From Dehalococcoidia bacterium (GTDB lineage: Bacteria > Chloroflexota > Dehalococcoidia > Lucifugimonadales > UBA3495): a stretch of 64,000 nucleotides of DNA. The notes under the pieces are model-generated. The model was given only the letters and a program-made list of their open reading frames with translations, did no database searches and had not been told where the DNA came from. The DNA lies in the NCBI GenBank assembly GCA_965197635.1, contig CBDANN010000005.1, positions 50,219-114,218 of the forward strand. The letters are read 5' to 3'. Made by a program: the position numbers and the translations under genes. Below, in pieces: positions 1 through 41,019 of the stretch (position 1 is the stretch's first letter; each line of letters starts with the position of its first letter).

Positions 1-268
1 GGAAGATGTTGCGGGTGCCAGCGCGGCGGTACTCATAGTCCTGGCGTCGTGGACGCCCGGGCTGTGGAGGCAGCGGCTCCCGCAGATTGGTCAGAGATCA
101 GGGCCAGCAGTTGGGTGAAAGTCTCGTCAAAGCACACCACCGGTCGGTCTGGATCGTAGGGCTCAGCGTACAGATCCAGCACGTCCTCCATTGCCGCCAC
201 GAACTCCCCGCCTACCTTGGGGATGCACCACTGTTGCTTCCGCCAGGGCTTGAGGACGTTTTTTTGAG
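1..268 (-). CDS. IS630-family transposase, DDE part (partial, 3' end outside window)
   Basis: An alternate frame reads KKNVLKPWRKQQWCIPKVGGEFVAAMEDVLDLYAEPYDPDRPVVCFDETFTQLL. It joins orfA at an A7 run (T7 on the plus strand, 259-265), which is either a frameshift site or an error. Confidence 0.7.
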
Positions 269-8173: not shown

Positions 8174-8271
8174 CCGGGAAACCACAAACTGATATTGATC
8201 AAAATCGCCACGCGCCCAAGGTGGTACATAGTCCTTGGCGATCACTGCCTCAATGTCCGCGGCGTTTCACA

Positions 8272-32866: not shown

Positions 32867-33043
32867 TTCGTCGGAGTCATGACCTTGCTCAATCAGCTTG
32901 GCGCGAACCTTCGCTATCCACTGGGCATCTGACTCTGATGATGCGGGCCGCGAAGTCAGGCATTGCCCGGTTGTGGCTGTTTGGCCTGCTCATTGAACCG
33001 GTACCTGTGATTGATTGCGATGGCAACGGGGTACGCTATATTC

Positions 33044-33478
33044 TTACGCTACATTGCCTGAATCGGGATGTCGCCCGTTGGAACTTAGTAGCTCGTTCAG
33101 GTCGTAACCCCGCTGTTGGAGTTGGTCTCGGATCTCGGCGTGGCCCTCCTCTCGGCCCTCCTGACGGCCCTGGCTCAGGGCTTCGGCTATTTCACGGGCA
33201 CGCCGCGCGCGATTTTCCTGATACTTGTCCCAGGCTTTGATAAACAGCACTATGATCCCTCCTCCTACCAGAATCAGCAGGATGACGAGGATAATCGTTC
33301 CGCCGCCGATTTCGCCCAGCCGGTTCAGGTAGTTGGCGATGTCGTGAAAGGTACGCTGCGCCGTCGAGTCTTTGGGCAGCACACTTTCGCCGAGCATTAT
33401 AATCAGGCTGACTACGGCTGCCGCATACAGCGCAATCGTGGCAATCGTTGCCCACAGCTCCAAACGTCGCCAGTTCAT
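33044..33478 (-). CDS. hypothetical membrane protein
   Basis: Starts MNWRRLELWATIATIALYAAAVVSLIIML; a second TM GGTIILVILLILVGGGIIVLFI; a charged C-terminus. Confidence 0.5.
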   Translation of the reverse strand: MNWRRLELWATIATIALYAAAVVSLIIMLGESVLPKDSTAQRTFHDIANYLNRLGEIGGGTIILVILLILVGGGIIVLFIKAWDKYQENRARRAREIAEALSQGRQEGREEGHAEIRDQLQQRGYDLNELLSSNGRHPDSGNVA

Positions 33479-33634
33479 TAGCCTAAGCTTATTGTAGTAT
33501 TTGGAGCAATGGGAATAACCCATCTGACAGTCGTCAAATCGGCGCAGTGTCGGTAAGGCGAGCCGATTTGTGGTAAAACTAACCTGGACTAAAAACGGAT
33601 TGCCGAACAAAGTTACAATGACGAGGAGGCTCTG

Positions 33635-34555
33635 ATGACTACCGCCACCAACGTCGTCGGAAACGGCGCGCACACTTACGAGTTCGACCGGAACTGGGCC
33701 CAGGCTCCCGATGGCATCCCCATGCCCGCCGCCGCCGTGTTCGGCGACGACGAGGATCGGGTGTATTGTTTCAACCGCAACGCGGAACACCCCATCATGA
33801 TTTTTGACCGCGAGGGCAAGTTCATCAAGTCGTGGGGAGCCGGAATGTTTGAATTCCCCCACGCCATCATCATCGACCAGTGGGGCTATGTCTGGTTGGT
33901 TGACCGCAACATGGGTCAGATTTTCAAGCTGACCAAGGACGGCGAGGTGGTGATGACCATCGGCGAGCGCGGCTATCGCTCCGATACCGGCGCCAACAAT
34001 AACGCCTTCGACTCAAATTCCTGGCATCAGGTGGAGCGGGGCGCGGAACCCTTCAATATGCCGGCTGGCATCGCGCTGAACGACGCCGGGGAGATTTACA
34101 TCGCCGACGGCTACGCCAACGCCCGCGTCCACAAATTCACGCCCAACGGTGAGCTCATATTCTCCTGGGGCGAGCCGGGCGCTGGCCCTGGCCAGTTCAA
34201 CCTGCCGCACGGGGCCTGGATCGACCGGCAGGGGAACCTGCTCATTGCCGACCGGGAAAACGACCGGGTGCAGGTATTCCAGCAGGACGGCACCCACGTT
34301 GCCGACTGGCCCAGTAAGCTCATCGGCCCGGCGGTGATCTGCATCGATGACGACGACGTGGCCTACGTCGCCGAGCACAACGGCGGTATGCTGAGCATCC
34401 TGGACGCCAACGGCGCGAGGCTGGCGCAGTGGGGCGATTTGACCCACCGGAGCTGCCACGGCGTCTGGGTGGACAGCCAGAAAGACCTCTACGTTGTGGA
34501 GCCTTATGAAGGCAGCACCGGGCGTACCGTTGTGAAGTACACGCGCAAAGGCTAA
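33635..34555 (+). CDS. NHL-repeat beta-propeller protein (peptidylglycine-lyase-like)
   Basis: Repeated FxxPHGI..D..G.I.VAD..N.RV..F units, e.g. FNMPAGIALNDAGEIYIADGYANARVHKF and FNLPHGAWIDRQGNLLIADRENDRVQVF. Confidence 0.8.
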   Translation: MTTATNVVGNGAHTYEFDRNWAQAPDGIPMPAAAVFGDDEDRVYCFNRNAEHPIMIFDREGKFIKSWGAGMFEFPHAIIIDQWGYVWLVDRNMGQIFKLTKDGEVVMTIGERGYRSDTGANNNAFDSNSWHQVERGAEPFNMPAGIALNDAGEIYIADGYANARVHKFTPNGELIFSWGEPGAGPGQFNLPHGAWIDRQGNLLIADRENDRVQVFQQDGTHVADWPSKLIGPAVICIDDDDVAYVAEHNGGMLSILDANGARLAQWGDLTHRSCHGVWVDSQKDLYVVEPYEGSTGRTVVKYTRKG

Positions 34556-34634
34556 CGGCGCGGTTGCGGAGTTCGCAGGGGGTTTGCTAGAATGGAAACG
34601 CGCCGCCGGTGTGGATTGGCGGCGCGCCGACCTC

Positions 34635-34710
34635 GGGGCTGTAGCTCATTTGGGAGAGCGCTTCAATGGCATTGAAGAGGCAGCGGGTTCGATTCCCGCC
34701 AGCTCCACCA
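34635..34710 (+). tRNA. tRNA-Ala (anticodon GGC)
   Basis: GGGGCTG acceptor with G3:U70, anticodon loop AT-GGC-AT, T-arm GCGGGTTCGATTCCCGC, encoded CCA. Confidence 0.9.
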
Positions 34711-35774
34711 CTCCGTCATCCTGGAGTTTGACGTGCCCAGCTACCGCACCGATGCAGCCCAGCAACGAGGCCAGACCCAGGAGGTGAACCGGCAAAACTC
34801 ATCGACGACAATTCGGCAAATTTAGTTGACGCGGGACAATATGTAGTAGCCTAAATTGGCACTATACGGTAGTCGTGAAACCATGGACGCATAGGGACCT
34901 TAGGCACCAACGGGACGGGTGATGCTGTTCGGCATCGTGTTTTGGGGAGCGCCGCATTGTTGTGCGGGACTTCCCATTTTAGCCCGTAACGGTTCGCCCG
35001 GTCACTTCGCGCACCCCACCTCACCCTACCCTCCTCGCTTTCACTGGCACTGACAAAATCCATTTAGGCAATACCTTTCCGGAACCAGCTTCGCTCTGCA
35101 AGTCGGGTTGCCCGTCCGCCTGTGCAGCGCCACAGGAGCTATACGTACGCGTTTCAGGGGCTTGGGTCAGTGTTGGCAGCGTTCGGGTAGGTCAGGGCAG
35201 CGTGATGACCGCTGCCGCTGGTCGACAATACCGGTCAGGGCAACGACCACCCTGCCGCGCCAAGCGCGGATCTGTTCAACGAAGCACGGGCTCTACTGGG
35301 CAAGTACGGCGTCCGCCCGTCGGAACTGGCCTACATCGCCGACGTGGGGACGTACATCAAGTCGGCGGCCGTTGGCTAGTCCCACACGCTGGACAAGCTG
35401 GGGCCGCAGGCCACTCTGCTCAACAGACAGCTGGCGCAGGTAGGCGGCATCCCTGCCATCGTGTTGGAGCAGATGGCCAGGTCGGACACCTATGGCAAGG
35501 GTAACGCTCCGCGCATCGTCCCGTCTTCTGTCGGTGGGGTGCGGCGCGGTACGACTGGACCGCGCCGTTAGCGTTACAAAAGTGTTGCATCTCTGCGTGG
35601 TGGCGACGTAGTTGGGGCTCGCTGCGTGACCGTCGGCCTACTCGGCTAGGGCGTGGTGCGTTCGACGCCGCTGGACATAGCTGCCGTAGCGCGGGCCAAA
35701 TCAACCCCGGCACCTGCAGTGTCACCGGTTCAGTTCAATTGCCGAAAGCAATGTTATGCCCGCATCCGGGCTGG

Positions 35775-36000
35775 GCAGAGGCGACTAACTGATGAGTTTG
35801 CCCCAGGATGTATGCTCATGGTGAGGCGTGTCGTCCGGACCAAGACCGAGAGGACATTGGTGCGTATTGCCCGATCTATAGCATGGTCTGGGAGCCTTAC
35901 GACGGCATCATTGGTGACGCCCCGTTGGGGGCGATCCCGTTGGGGAGAGTGGCTACATTCCGCGGCTCTTTCCGGCGTCACGTCTACGCAGCCATCGTGG
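35775..36000 (+). ncRNA. candidate IS110 bridge RNA / structured 5' leader
   Basis: A non-coding block directly upstream of the recombinase, with conserved segments shared with the second copy at 37420-37670 and local hairpins (GACGCCCCGTTGGGGGCG). The assignment rests on published IS110 biology and is not proven here. Confidence 0.45.
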
Positions 36001-36005
36001 AGGGA

Positions 36006-37395
36006 ATGATGAGCGGACGCCAGAACAGCGCGAAACCGGCGGGGTTGTCCCAGCTGAACCGGAACGCGGCGGGCATCGACGTGGGCGCCACCAGCCACTA
36101 TGTGGCGGTGCCCGCTGACCGGGCGGAACCGCCAGTGCAAGAGTTTGAGGCTTTCACGGCGGACCTGTATCGACTGGCCGAGTGGCTGGCGGAGTGCGGC
36201 GTGGCAACCGTGGTCATGGAGTCCACCGGCGTGTACTGGATACCCCTGTTCGGGGTGCTGGAAGAGCGTGGGTTTGCGGTGATGCTAGTGGACCCCCGGC
36301 GCATCAAGAACGTGCCAGGGCGCAAGACCGACGTGGCGGACTGCCAGTGGCGGCAGCAGTTGCACACCTACGGCCTGCTCTCGGGAGCCTTCCGTCCCGA
36401 CGGGGACATCCGACGCCGGCGCAGCTACCTGCGGCAGCGGGCCATGCTGGTGGAATACGCCTCCCACCACGTCCAGCACATGCAGAAAGCCTTGACCCAG
36501 ATGAACGTGAAGTTGCAGCACGTGATCCGGGACATCACCGGCAAGACCGGCATGGACATCATGGAGGCCATCGTGGGTGGCGAGCCGAACCCGCGGAAAT
36601 TGGCGCGGTCTGCGCGATCCCAGGATCAAGGCCGACGAGAAGACCATCGCCAGGTCGCTGCGGGGGCACTGGCGCGACGAGCACATCTTCGAGCTGACCC
36701 AGGCGCTGGAGTTGTACCGGTTCTATCACGACAAAATTGCCGAGTGCGACCGTGAGATCGAAGCCCAGTTGGAGCGGTTTGATGACCGCAGCGACGGCGG
36801 GTCTCCCGCTCCCAACGGCAAGAAGCGGAACCAGAAGAACGCGCCGCGTTTCGACGTCCAGAGCCATCTGTACCGGATGACTGGGGTGGACCTGACCTGT
36901 ATCGACGGCGTGGACGGCTTCACGGCGTTGAAGGTGATCAGCGAAGTCGGCGCCGACCTGACCAAATGGCCCAGCGCCAAGCATTTCGCGTCCTGGCTGG
37001 GGCTGAGCCCCCACAACCGCATCACAGGTGGTCGGATCATCAGCTCAAAGACCAAAGCCAGCGCCAACCGTGCGGCGGCGGCATTACGGCTGGCAGCCAA
37101 CGCCCTTCACCGCTCGGACAGCGCCCAGGGCGCCTTCCTGCGCCGGAAGAAAGCTCAGCTGGGCGCGCCCAAGGCCATTACCGCCACCGCGCACAAGCTG
37201 GCCAGGCTCATCTATTCCATGCTGCGCTACGGCCAGGAGTACGTGGACGCTGGAGCCGAGTACTACGAAACTCAGTATCAGCGCCGGGCGTTACGTGCAG
37301 CCAAGCGTCGGGCGGCACAGTTGGGCTACCAACTGGTGCCCATGGTCGATGACCATGCTTCCGCACCGCCCCACGGAGTGGAGGTAGCGGCGTGA
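36006..37395 (+). pseudogene. IS110-family transposase, one +1 frameshift near 36605
   Basis: MMSGRQNS...AAGIDVGATSHYVAV...VVMESTGVYWIPL (DEDD N-terminal domain). After the frame change: LTCIDGVDGFTALKVISEVG...AKHFASWLGLSPHNRITGG (C-terminal domain). Confidence 0.85.
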
Positions 37396-37419
37396 CACTC
37401 CCGGTTAGTCTATAGCAGC

Positions 37420-37670
37420 ATTATGGCCGTGGCCGGCCCGTGCAGAGGCGACTAACTGGTCAGTCCGCGTCGGCCGTGTATACTCTGGCGAGGCGTGTCG
37501 TACGGACCAAGACCGAGTAGACGTTGGTGCATATTGCCCGATCCATAGCATGGTCCGGGAGTTTTACGACTACAGCATTGGTGACGCCCCGTTGTGGGGC
37601 GATCCCGTTGGATAGATTGTGCGTTGCCGATGACTCCCTCCGGCGACACGCCTACGCTGTAAGGAGGGCC
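37420..37670 (+). repeat. second, diverged copy of the IS110 5' leader with no transposase behind it
   Basis: Shares GCAGAGGCGACTAACTG, GAGGCGTGTCGTxCGGACCAAGACCGAG...TTGGTGCxTATTGCCCGATCxATAGCATGGTCxGGGAG and CATTGGTGACGCCCCGTT..GGGGCGATCCCGTTGG with 35752-36005. Two blocks of about 30 nt differ completely. Confidence 0.8.
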
Positions 37671-37728
37671 AGTCGCCGCGTGAAAACTCCAGTTAGTGGA
37701 TAGTCCAGCCAAGAACAGAGAGGCAATT

Positions 37729-38040
37729 ATGCCATCAAGCCAATCAGGGAAGATCCAACGCTACTTCGAAATCGACATTGAAGCAGCCCTAGAGGAACTC
37801 CAGAGAGCCGCCGAAGAAGAGCCGTTCGCTCCACCGGCGGTCCTAGCCAATGTTGCCAAGCTGTCGGGATGGAACGACCCTCCAGACGTCGTCATCGTGA
37901 CACCCGTGTCAAACAAGTGGGAATGGCAAGACGGCGGCTTCTTCTTGGGCAACGCCGACGGCACGGGTGCAATAATCTTTGAGCCGGGAACCTACGATAT
38001 TCCACTCACCGGCATAGTGGTAACTGTTCAGACTTGGTGA
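37729..38040 (+). CDS. hypothetical protein, 3' end replaced by the IS66 left end
   Basis: MPSSQSGKIQRYFEIDIEAALEELQRAAEE... The last codons (VTVQTW) and the stop come from the IS66 terminal repeat. Confidence 0.4.
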   Translation: MPSSQSGKIQRYFEIDIEAALEELQRAAEEEPFAPPAVLANVAKLSGWNDPPDVVIVTPVSNKWEWQDGGFFLGNADGTGAIIFEPGTYDIPLTGIVVTVQTW

Positions 38041-39471
38041 GGTGAATTGGCCGAATTGGGTTAGGAGATGGCTGGCGTTGGGGGTGGTGGTTATGTCATA
38101 TAGCTGGGATGGACGGTGCAATTGATCTCCGGACTGCCGACCGGGATGTGCTCATCGGCATCATCATCATCATCCGACAGCAGGCCATCATTGAACGCCT
38201 GGAGAAGCGGGTCGCCCAGTCGGAAGGCAAGGGCAAATCCGGCGGTTCGGGACGGATGCCCGGCCTGAAGCCCAAAGGCGACGGGAAGACGGATCAACCC
38301 AAGAAGCCGCGCCAGCCCCGTCGCTCGGGCTTTGCCCGAACCAGAATGACGCCCGACCAGCGGATGGAGCACGCGCTGGAGCGGTGTCCCGATTGTGGGA
38401 TCCAGTTGTCCGGGGGCTGGACCCAGCGCACTCGGGAGGTCATCGAGTTGCCCCAGGTTCCGGTGCAGGTAACCGAGCACGCCTATATCGCCCGCGCCTG
38501 CCCCCAGTGCCAACGGCGGTGGGTTCCCTCGGCGGAGTTGGACGAGGTAGTGATGGGCCAGCAGCGCCTGGGGATCAACCTGGTCAGCCTGATTGCCGCG
38601 CTGCGGGAAGAGGCCCGGCTGCCCTTCCGTACCATCCAGTGGTACCTGGCCGCGGTGCATGGTCTGCGTCTCAGCGTGGGCGCCATCGTGGCCGCCACAC
38701 CAAGGGTGGCCGACCGAGCCCAGGGGATGATGACCGACATCGTGGAACGGATCCGAGGCAGTCCGGTGGTCCACGCCGACGAGACCGGCTGGCGGGAGGA
38801 CGGACACAACGGTTACGTGTGGACCTTCAGCACCCCCACCCTTACGCTACTTCCTGCACGCTACTCCTGCGGAGGGGACGCGGCAAAACCGTGGTGGATG
38901 AGGTCCTGGGCGATGAGTTTGCCGGGGTGCTGGTCAGCGACTTCTATGCCGCCTACCACCACTATGACGGCCCCAAGCAGCGCTGCTGGGCACATCTGTT
39001 GCGGGACATCCACGACCGGCGCGTCCTCTACCCCGACGATCTCCCCTTGGTCCAGTGGGCGGACGCCGTCCACCAACTCTACCAACAGGCCAAAGCCTTC
39101 ACCCATCCGGCAGAGCAGCAGCGACGCGCTGCCCAACTGGCCCTGGAACGACGGCTGCTGGCGCTGTGCCGTCCCTACCGGGATGACCCGGCGTCGGCGC
39201 AGGCCAGACTGTGCCGACGCATCAGTAACCACATCAAGGAACTCTTCGTCTTCGTGGCTCATCCGGAGGTGCCGCCGGACAACAACGCCGCCGAGCGCAG
39301 CCTGCGACCAGTGGTGATCAGCCGCAAGATCAGCGGCGGCACCCGCTCGGAGCGAGGCACCGAGACCAAGATGGCGCTGGCCTCAATCTTCGGCACCTGG
39401 CGCACACAAGACCTCAACCCACTCGCCGCCTGCCAGCAACTCCTCGCTTCCCCTCAACTCTGAACAGTTAC
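38030..39471 (+). mobile_element. IS66-family IS (single-ORF type)
   Basis: TIRs GTAACTGTTCAGACTTGGTGAGG (38030-) and the reverse complement of CCCCTCAACTCTGAACAGTTAC (-39471). No matching TSD. Confidence 0.85.
38109..39463 (+). pseudogene. IS66-family transposase, two frameshifts near 38830-38880
   Basis: Zinc ribbon CPDCGIQL...CPQCQRRW, VVHADETGWREDG...WTFSTPT, then a frame change, then VLVSDFYAAYHHY...QRCWAHLLRD...NNAAERSLRPVVISRKISGGTRSERG. Confidence 0.85.
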
Positions 39472-39586
39472 CAGTATCTTTCCTGCGCCATGGCTGCTGC
39501 ACCTCCCGGCAACCGGATTTCGCAGCCATCGTAGGGATTGCCACCACCGAACCCAAAGTACTTCCAATGCTAATTTGATCCAATAC
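39472..39586 (-). repeat. 115-bp relic of an IS630 copy-A-type end
   Basis: Near-identical to 663-776. It starts exactly at the IS66 right end and ends ...CAATAC followed by TA. Confidence 0.85.
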
Positions 39587-40445
39587 TAAATTAAAGCCAA
39601 GGTGGGATGTGCATTTGCCGGAAGGCTGGAATTGGGCTGGGAATCTTGTAGGAGCGCCTCGGCCCTCGATTGCAGCACTGTTCGGCAACGCCGTCTCACC
39701 TCGTCCTTCCGGCTGGCCAGACCAGCCAGGAAGTTCCCGACGCGTTCCTGCACCGCCGCCCTGGTCCCCAGGCACAAATTGCCGGTGGCCTCTTCTCTCG
39801 CCCAACCCCAGATGGCCTCATCGGCGTTGAAGTCCGGGCTGTAGCCCGCAGGTTCACCAGCCTCAGGTTCAGGTCAGGCGTCTGCAGGTATTCCCGCAAC
39901 GCCTCCCCACGATGGGCCGGGGCATTGTCCCAGATCACGTTCAGACGCCCGCCGTGCCTCCCCCGCAACCGTTCCAGGAAGGCAACCGAGGTCCCGGCGT
40001 TGCTGTTGCCCTCCACTTCCATCCACTCCACCTCTCCGGTCTCCAAGCACACCGCCGAGTAGTAGCTGGCCTTCTCCCCGTATTTCGGACTGCTGGAGTC
40101 CACCAATGCCGGCTCTCCTCTCAGCACCCACTCGCCCCGCAACTTGGCGTCGGCCCGGAAGTGGGCCTCGTCAACAAAGAATACCTTTCCGCCAGTGCGT
40201 CCCGACTGGTCCCAAAAGGCGGCATACTCCGCCACGAAGGCCTCACGCTTCGCCTCATTCGCTTGGACCAACCGCTTCTTGGGCCGCTTGAAGGCGAACC
40301 CCAAGCGGCGCAGGTAATTCAAGCAGCTGCTGCGGCACAGGCTGACACCGAACCGTTCCGAAACCAACTGCCGCACCACCTTCCAATACCAGTTGGCCAT
40401 TTCCATGCCTGACCATGACGGCGGCAGTTGCACCGCCGCTTTCAA
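39586..40445 (-). pseudogene. IS630-family transposase DDE part, frameshift near 39840
   Basis: VFFVDEAHF...YYSAVCLETGEV...LNVIWDNAPAHRG, then after a frame change GYSPDFNADEAIWGWAREE. Confidence 0.8.
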
Positions 40446-40815
40446 CTCCTCTTGCTGCGCTTGGTCAAGGGCGGGGGGAACCGCCGGTCGGCTCGAATAG
40501 CAGGGCCGCAGGCCCTCCCTCGCTGAAGGCCGAGGCCCAGCGCCCGATGGTGTGGGGGTCGCGCTCCAGTGCCTCCGCCGTGGCCGCCGCCGTCCAGCCT
40601 TGGGCCAGGAGCAGCATAGCGTACCAACGCTCCCGCTCCCGGGGCGTGGGCGCCAGGATCATCCGCCGCCTGAGGTCCTTCTCCCTCAGCTGCCATCGTT
40701 CCAGCGACCGCCCTATCTCTCTCACCCCCATCAGCAACGCCTCCCAACTTCCGAGGTCAGCTAACCAGTTACGGCCTCAATTTACCCCACTCCTCTGCGC
40801 ATTTCACCCTGGCTT
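39594..40815 (-). mobile_element. IS630-family IS, copy B (different subgroup from copy A)
   Basis: TIRs AAGCCAAGGTGGGATGTGCA (39594-) and the reverse complement of GCGCATTTCACCCTGGCTT (-40815), with TA at 39592-39593. About 1.22 kb. Confidence 0.85.
40465..40737 (-). CDS. IS630-family transposase orfA (HTH)
   Basis: RERERWYAMLLLAQGWTAAATAEALERDPHTIGRWASAFSEGGPAAL. Confidence 0.8.
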   Translation of the reverse strand: MLMGVREIGRSLERWQLREKDLRRRMILAPTPRERERWYAMLLLAQGWTAAATAEALERDPHTIGRWASAFSEGGPAALLFEPTGGSPRP

Positions 40816-41019
40816 TGGTTTAGTTCCTCTGACTTGGCGTCGACGTTGTCGGGTTGGCGGGGGATCCGTTTCCACGTAGCGTAGTCGGCCTATGGCCTGC
40901 CGTCATTCGACCCGGCTTTGAGGGAAATACGAGATTCTCTGATACGACGATCTCTTTCTGGTGCCGTTCAGCCACATCCCGGGTAGCGGAATCGTCTCGC
41001 CATCTGAGGCTACGGACTA

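Follow-up and report, generated by a model that had tools for sequence, protein, structure and literature searches.

A miniature IS110-group element carrying a bridge-RNA-type gene in a sponge-associated Dehalococcoidia genome

How does a bridge-RNA-like leader come to lie directly behind a full-length IS110 element, with no recombinase gene of its own to follow it? The question is raised by a 64-kb window (the whole stretch of DNA analysed, G000:C6:50219-114218) of G000, the 5.25-Mb genome of a sponge-associated member of the Dehalococcoidia. The original prediction had recognized two similar non-coding leaders of about 250 nt on either side of an insertion sequence (IS) transposase gene, had taken both for bridge-RNA genes with different guides, and had regarded the second as an orphan that keeps a Shine-Dalgarno sequence (SD) but has no recombinase behind it. 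Here we describe the second leader as part of a 288-bp miniature element, referred to below as the mini (length counting one AG), which stands head-to-tail behind the full-length element (element 1). By comparison with relatives of G000, which are Dehalococcoidia metagenome-assembled genomes, we consider it likely that the two are IS110-group elements in tandem, and that the mini is a guide-carrying non-autonomous element served in trans by the recombinase of its relatives. The window sequence is present in public sponge metagenome and metatranscriptome runs.

The 288-bp unit and its insertion sites

When aligned, leader 1 (35752-36005) and leader 2 (37420-37670) are about 80% identical, both about 250 nt long and non-coding, with conserved and variable blocks as originally described. 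A covariance model of the family has exactly two matches in the window, scoring 191 bits on leader 1 and 177 bits on leader 2, so the repeat is far from chance. The similarity starts a few bases further left than first drawn, and the true left ends, each directly 3' of an AG core, are 35749 and 37416. Nor does the second copy stop at the SD: it continues through GCCGCGTGA and then a 20-nt right end to 37703. This 3' part corresponds to the 3' end of element 1 (GCGGCGTGA...GGTTAGTCTATAG), with GCCGCGTGAAAACTCCAGTTAGTGGATAG in the mini being the counterpart of GCGGCGTGACACTCCCGGTTAGTCTATAG in element 1 (stop codon and right end), and the mini thus has both element ends. It comprises a left end with the bridge RNA, an SD (AAGGAGGG), 15 nt from the end of the transposase gene (CCAGTCGCCGCGTGA; 3' end) and, finally, a right end ending GTTAGTGGAT-AG, and sits at the junction of the element 1 right end with its flank (Table 1).

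A whole-genome BLAST search yields 13 copies of the mini in G000, eight of them complete at 100% identity and one at 99.65%, the others being truncated or interrupted. There are three head-to-tail dimers with a 288-bp period, and two minis stand directly behind a full-length element (at the window locus and at C9:606489). All complete copies have ...AG before them and ...AG at their end. At C8:231335 the filled site reads ...ggtggtacat-AG-[286 bp ...GTGGAT-AG]-tccttggcgatcac..., and a pattern search for empty sites identified two paralogs reading ...ggtggtacat-AG-tccttggcgatcac..., at window positions 8220-8240 and at C1:1427777. The former comes just after an IstB-like C-terminus, within the right end of an IS21-family element. 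Boundaries, AG on both sides, empty site and copy number can all be read directly from the sequence. No orthologous empty site was found for the window locus itself, of which only the first ~120 nt of the left flank are kept in the relatives G007, G063 and G064.

These three sister species have one mini each, at 96-98% identity and with the same internal deletion junction; those of G063 and G064 again stand behind a full element, ending in GTCCATAG. Because the junction (GGAGGGCCAG(T/C)CGCCGCGTGA) is common to all four species, the open reading frame (ORF) would have been deleted once, and the derivative would have persisted and then been amplified in G000. As judged from its sequence, the second leader is accordingly a non-autonomous miniature element, born once by loss of the whole recombinase ORF, with the bridge-RNA gene and both ends kept. 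An exact search for the deletion junction and the donor-loop motif (see below) found no match in genome and metagenome contig collections that possibly lack near relatives of G000. Like MITEs (miniature inverted-repeat transposable elements), the mini is small, non-coding, multi-copy and a deletion derivative. It differs from the classical MITE with terminal inverted repeats and target-site duplication, since its two ends are unlike each other (CAGCATTATGG... and ...GTTAGTGGATAG) and the AG core is all that is repeated.

Table 1. Features of the tandem locus and of the RNA fold (window positions, or columns of alignment A2)
Feature	Position	Strand	Basis
Miniature element, 288 bp	37416..37703	+	13 genome copies with the same boundaries; 288-bp dimer period; filled versus empty paralogous site; same deletion junction in G007, G063 and G064
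Structured core, mini bridge RNA	37489..37666	+	cmsearch 177 bits; fold consensus and pair counts
Left target guide, mini, AUCCAUAG	37541..37548	+	guide/flank comparison
Left donor guide, mini, UUGGAUAG	37608..37615	+	7/8 to own right end GTGGATAG, counting flanking bases
Candidate sigma-70-like promoter, TGGTCA-16 nt-TATACT	37457..37484	+	1 site versus 0.5 expected by chance; lead only
Right target TCCAG	37704..37708	+	kept from the original insertion site; small ORF starting at 37730 comes next
Unoccupied mini target, GTACAT-AG-TCC (GGTGGTACAT-AG-TCC)	8224..8234	+	paralogous to occupied C8:231335
Element 1, full-length IS110-group	35749..37415	+	Pfam; boundaries from family alignment
Left-junction AG core dinucleotide, element 1	35747..35748	+	junction alignment of ~45 family copies
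IS110-family DEDD recombinase gene	36006..37395	+	PF01548 and PF02371
Structured core, element 1 bridge RNA	35822..35998	+	cmsearch 191 bits; RNAalifold consensus and pair counts
Left target guide, element 1, AUCUAUAG	35874..35881	+	guide/flank comparison
Left donor guide, element 1, UUGGGGAG	35940..35947	+	guide/right-end comparison
Closing helix	columns 66-80 with 218-232		RNAalifold
Target domain	stem 85-89/127-131, apical hairpin 100-105/111-115		RNAalifold
Donor domain	stem 133-143/209-217, hairpin 156-165/176-184		RNAalifold

Fold and guides of the predicted RNA

RNAalifold on 34 non-redundant sequences gives a consensus fold of 43 pairs with 97.6% of cells paired, in which a closing helix encloses a target and a donor domain. 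The compensatory changes that the original prediction had proposed to look for were found: 13 pairs are changed on both sides, against 4.4 +/- 1.4 in shuffled controls (0/500) and 2-5 with slid partners. It is in the closing helix and in the stem and hairpin of the donor domain that this covariation gives support, both helices of the target domain being invariant; the frequent G-U pairs are compatible with the + strand only. In all four species the scaffold of the mini is intact at every invariant family position, with the ORF lost. Both left guides lie on the 3' strand of the internal loop, after the apical hairpin, an order that rests on fold prediction because the target-domain helices do not vary. 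Two other structures were rejected, namely an alternative target-domain helix (CCGGACC/GGUCCGG), whose 5' side in three distant members changes not with this partner but with the 3'-terminal one, and a 5' hairpin in the first variable block, which is not conserved and is absent from the mini.

The guides were located by aligning 61 distinct left ends from G000 and its relatives, with 41 distinct flank/guide pairs. The target guide is the 7-8 nt before CAUGGUC, equal to the left flank plus AG. Guide and flank are identical at 177 of 246 non-core positions in the 41 pairs, against 85.5 +/- 8.2 in shuffles, none of 20,000 of which reach the observed value; comparisons with wrong partners stay at background level, and mutual-information peaks coincide with the target-guide columns. 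Thus the A-type guide GCGCAAAG is found behind TTGCGCAAAG, the G-type guide UUUGGGAG behind AGTTGGGAG, and, in distant members, UCUUUCAG behind CCTTTCAG. The mini guide AUCCAUAG matches its left flanks GTCCATAG at 7/8, GTACATAG at 6/8, GTCTATAG (the window locus) at 6/8 and ATGCAGAG at 6/8. One mini copy, L002 (G007:C2:1285738-1286008), carries a different target guide, GGUCCAAAG, and other sequence in place of its 5' 17 nt, and may be either a retargeting variant or a product of decay.

The donor guide is the 6 nt after CCCGUU, which repeat the final bases of the right end; it reads GGGGAG, CGGGAG or CCAUAG in full-length subfamilies and GGAUAG in the mini. It matches the right end at 7/8 in the mini and in subfamilies A, E and G, and at 6/8 in B, C and D. 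Both guide segments have the sequence of the top strand and so would pair with the bottom one, in agreement with the left target and left donor guides of IS621 (PMC11208160). Among the 54 genomes of the genus, the donor-loop motif TCCCGTTGGATAGA occurs only in minis, apart from a hit in G013 that lies in unrelated DNA and was dismissed as chance. No full-length element with the donor guide GGAUAG exists in these genomes, all full-length donor guides differing from that of the mini at at least 2 of 4 variable positions. The nearest full-length left ends (G007, 86% identity) have the target guide and left-end start of the mini, but GGGGAG as donor guide. One A-type full-length copy with an open frame, G000:C9:806996-808726 (- strand), has the mini right end GTTAGTGGATAG in place of GTTAGTGGGGAG; it is followed by TCTAGCCAAGA, which resembles the right flank in the window, and may be the footprint of a lost mini or the outcome of an end exchange. 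A proposed identity between the 5' strand of the donor loop (CAGCAUU) and the left-end start of the mini was rejected, as it shows no covariation in G063.

By this fold and by guides that track flank and element end, both leaders encode a bridge-RNA-type molecule with a conserved fold and guide segments, as had been proposed. That the two copies carry different guides is likewise upheld, the target guides differing by one base (UCUAUAG versus UCCAUAG) and the donor guides by two (GGGGAG versus GGAUAG). Their placement in the two variable blocks is not. The target guide lies in a block described as conserved (CCCGATC.ATAGCATGG, where the dot is the only difference); the first variable block precedes the structured core on the 5' side and shows no conserved pairing; and the second begins within the donor guide, takes in its last bases, and goes on through the loop's variable 3' strand and the donor stem.

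Element 1 and its family

In element 1 the transposase gene stands between a non-coding left end of 257 nt and a 20-nt right end ending GTTAGTCTAT-AG. The gene was correctly assigned to IS110, matching PF01548 (DEDD_Tnp_IS110; E=1.6e-16, 60.9 bits, cut-off 29) and PF02371 (Transposase_20; E=8.3e-11, 42.6 bits, cut-off 21.3), and the traits of the group are found: a DEDD/RuvC-like N-terminal domain, a C-terminal Tnp domain, and a long left and short right end. There are no terminal inverted repeats and no target duplication, and every complete copy has AG at both junctions. In the window the frame is split (36006-36755 and 36577-37395) by an additional G near 36607 (36600-36612). A short-read contig of the public run X1 lacks this G, which restores the frame; its depth is 17.8 of 37.4, like that of the unique flanks (16-21). 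The extra G may therefore be an assembly error or a polymorphism, and the frameshift may not be real.

The element 1 target guide AUCUAUAG matches the present left flank GCCGAAAG at only 4/8, and D-type right ends as well as its own right end at 7/8. Its donor guide UUGGGGAG (GGGGAG) predicts a right end ...G/CGGGAG, whereas the real right end GTCTATAG fits at 3/8. An F-type ortholog, L025 (G066), has what the element 1 guides predict, standing behind GTTAGTCTATAG and having the right end GTTACTCGGGAG (CGGGAG). By sliding identity, the match of element 1 to L025 is 91-97% up to nt ~985 and falls to 79-86% beyond; copy D (C6:45427), with the right end GTCTATAG, is 100% identical to element 1 over nt 985-1135. 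This shift of identity from L025 to copy D points to recombination among family members having swapped the 3' third, and on this evidence element 1 is a mosaic, F-type for the first ~985 nt and then D/E-type, including the right end. Its left flank ...ATTGCCGAA-AG resembles the common family target ...ATTGCGCAA-AG followed by TCCAG, and left flank and right flank past the mini (ATTGCCGAA-AG ... TCCAGCCAAGA) resemble the targets of other subfamilies, element 1 itself being in a non-cognate context. One possibility is that half-match insertion, as published for IS621, could have put an F-type left end at this site.

The family has ~45 left ends in G000, in a dozen diverged subfamilies (75-88% identity) with many in tandem arrays, and ~17 copies have an uninterrupted frame of at least 475 codons. 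Insertion is sequence-specific, each subfamily standing behind its own 6-8-nt motif, and G000 has 12 empty targets of the form TTGTACAAAG followed by TCCAG (e.g. C1:497045 and C9:290400). The common target of the A, B and C subfamilies consists of the closing bases of a further conserved repeat (...ggccagcttaccctggttttataatgtgcctaacttTTGTACAAAG, again followed by TCCAG), and the family inserts mostly into the ends of other mobile elements. Full-length C, D and E elements lie head-to-tail at G000:C6:43711-48786, 1.4 kb before the window start, the left flank of each being the right end of the previous element, with 1-2 mismatches to the next target guide. At C9:52917 and C9:783910, the same foreign end (...gcaggaataacgggcattaaactgcccatatgcg) breaks into a family left end at its first hairpin, which suggests that another element targets this hairpin.

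Around the tandem, a small ORF (37730-38040) starts 26 nt past the mini and has no Pfam match; it has a 74%-identical paralog at C9:1126221, which shows no similarity extending upstream. As originally noted, its 3' end runs into the end of an IS66 element, whose transposase (38109-39463) is likewise read in two frames. About 1 kb upstream of the IS cluster, a tRNA-Ala(GGC) gene at 34635-34710, also with partial tmRNA-model matches, may mark an island boundary.

Mobilization of the mini and related systems

Most economically, the mini would use its own RNA with a borrowed recombinase. The RNA would fold into the two-loop scaffold of the family, its target loop (AUCCAUAG) would pair with the sequence left of AG at the target, and the recombinase of one of the ~17 open-frame family copies would catalyse copy-out and insertion at AG. 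The right ends of several subfamilies (GTC(C/T)ATAG), together with the retained right half-target, may mimic the natural target of the mini in the IS21 end (GTACATAG followed by TCC). Several subfamilies have right ends that the mini guide fits (GTCCATAG and GTCTATAG), and the [IS110][mini] tandems (in the window, at C9:606489, in G063 and in G064) would arise because such a right end-AG-TCCAG mimics the mini target. The mini-mini dimers would fit donor-half-match recombination: at their junction GTGGATAG, where the left flank is the mini's own right end, the donor guide matches at 7/8 and the target guide at 5/8. The guide-flank and guide-end matches and the fold are features of the sequence; transcription, recombinase binding in trans and the reaction itself we infer from them. 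A narrower proposal seems to us evenly balanced, namely that the mini is a guide-only hyperparasite whose donor loop recognizes only its own ends, that it is retargeted by single-base guide changes (AUCCAUAG in G000 versus UCCAAAG in G007), and that its RNA belongs to a lineage with left guides on the opposite loop strand from IS621.

The only sigma-70-like match of the region lies in the first variable block of the mini and would have transcription begin close to the closing helix, around its first base. All through the family a GTAnnCT motif is conserved, and a junction promoter candidate (GTGA(C/A)A-18 nt-CAnnnT) is a lead only. Four public runs were compared as contigs, in which depth follows copy number and contigs end at repeat borders. 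One RNA-library contig spans a joint from right end to left end (37699 to 37412), a joint that chromosomal tandem dimers yield as well.

Several observations weigh against service of the mini in trans through its own guides. The depth of the mini in sponge metatranscriptome contigs is ~10 times that of the flanks, as 13 copies would give by DNA carry-over or uniform background. The commonest natural target has one non-core mismatch to the mini guide, and element 1 breaks the guide rules on both sides. The permutation test for the donor guide is weak (64/114 versus 53.4 +/- 5.6, p ~0.04), because many copies are mosaic. For the right target guide, the best candidate, a target-loop 6-mer on the 5' side of AUUGG, pairs with G(core) plus the right target only slightly better than shuffles (90/150 versus 81.8 +/- 3.4, p ~0.01, three registers tried), and no convincing right donor guide emerged from a mutual-information scan of low power or from inconsistent candidates picked by eye. 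A phmmer search of the recombinase halves against the PDB gave no hit, the protein being too distant from IS621. Rfam 15 (E<=1, positions 33000-41000) places no family on either leader, its sole hit being the tRNA-Ala/tmRNA-like one at 34635. The original prediction had named a model match and a structure shared by both copies as what to look for; the Rfam half of this is negative, the family-specific model and the shared fold are positive, and with flank covariation also positive the Rfam null is uninformative. The family model, run against 150 genomes drawn across the class, found two weak relatives only, outside the genus. These weak matches, and the lack of an Rfam family or a PDB hit, place the lineage far from IS621.

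The main competitor of service in trans through the mini's own RNA is that the mini is a passive, MITE-like passenger, moved by the bridge RNA of an autonomous master with its own RNA gene unused. This would suit the copy-number level of the mini in RNA-library contigs, the target guide and left-end start found in its closest full-length relatives (G007), and the precedent of MITEPpu9, an IS110-associated mini of Pseudomonas putida that relies on parent-like ends (PMC12288879). Against it, no full-length donor guide in the 54 genomes of the genus matches GGATAG, which the mini's own guide fits at 7/8, and the scaffold has stayed intact at invariant positions in four species after ORF loss; we regard the passenger explanation as unlikely. 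Less probable still is that the mini is kept for a benefit to the host or resident IS, as a second guide in [IS110][mini] tandems or as a recombinase-titrating decoy. The order of full element and mini does recur (twice in G000, and in G063 and G064), but target mimicry alone predicts such tandems, most minis are solitary, and the donor guide recognizes only the mini.

Spread by segmental duplication or homologous recombination has some local appeal, as the family is highly mosaic and the dimer loci C8:19819 and C9:694327 have the same left flank, so that at least one dimer pair is a duplicated segment or a repeated target. As a general account it is very improbable, given other copies with unrelated flanks on both sides, junctions that are base-exact at AG, and the empty paralogous site. 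The notion of an orphan leader at this locus only, the remains of a second IS110 that lost its recombinase here or had it displaced by the small ORF and IS66, would explain why no recombinase gene follows the SD at 37661-37668. It is hardly credible any longer: G000 contains the 288-bp unit 13 times and three further species contain it as well, the internal junction being shared and the right end complete, and the unit ends at 37703, before the small ORF, with AG on both sides. Copy number and shared boundaries thus refute it, and what had been called an orphan without a recombinase is a complete element, non-autonomous and multi-copy, that has a right end of its own.

Protein-less derivatives that keep a guide-RNA gene have a parallel in the PATE-like elements of IS200/IS605, which carry omega RNA; family, enzyme (TnpB/TnpA) and RNA role differ. 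Closer to hand is IS621 (Durrant et al. 2024, PMC11208160; Hiraizumi et al. 2024, PMC11208158). Like the elements described here, it has a recombinase with DEDD and Tnp domains, a left end that is long and non-coding, a short right end, the same core dinucleotide at either junction, and an RNA built of a closing stem and two domains with internal loops, with segments identical to left target and left donor plus core. The core of IS621 is CT and that here is AG, with guides of 7-8 nt; and in IS621 the order is stem, left guide, stem-loop and right guide (PMC11208158), whereas here the left guides come after the apical hairpin, by the predicted fold. Bridge RNA works in trans in experiments (PMC11208160). 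MITEPpu9 (the ssr9 module of ISPpu9, PMC12288879) is likewise a small protein-less IS110 associate, found alone, beside the IS or in tandem, and thought to be moved in trans. It carries an unrelated sRNA (Ssr9) between boxes that imitate the parent ends, so that the parent guide recognizes it. In contrast, the mini carries the bridge RNA itself, with a pair of donor guide and right end found in no full-length element; its ends do not copy those of a co-resident autonomous IS, GGATAG/GGAUAG being confined to minis except for the right end of the A-type copy at C9:808726.

Published IS110 tandem loci, described in two 2026 bioRxiv papers, also show full and non-coding units head-to-tail, with half-match recombination and tandem units whose boundaries match the left donor only (10.64898/2026.08.14.744561; 10.64898/2026.08.31.748434). 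Most tandems here differ in being explained by a canonical match of the target guide to the neighbour's right end. The first of these papers also reports recombinase-only IS110s of ~800 bp (10.64898/2026.08.14.744561). In the literature, and for these two papers in their searchable text, we found no paper on a dispersed guide-only IS110 element with its own donor code.

Efforts are under way to turn bridge recombinases into programmable tools for genome writing, and for these the separability of recombinase and guide and the tolerance of foreign scaffolds are practical questions. Should trans-mobilization fail in a test, the finding reduces to an ordinary IS110 family in decay that has a deletion derivative. 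The locus also offers a worked natural example of IS110 tandem pile-up, in which a neighbour's right end and the retained right half-target mimic a target. If the mini is indeed served in trans, it would represent a natural trans use of bridge RNAs, in which a scaffold ~80-86% identical to the resident ones is still served, and guide-encoded recognition of 'self' would be a new layer of parasitism among mobile elements.

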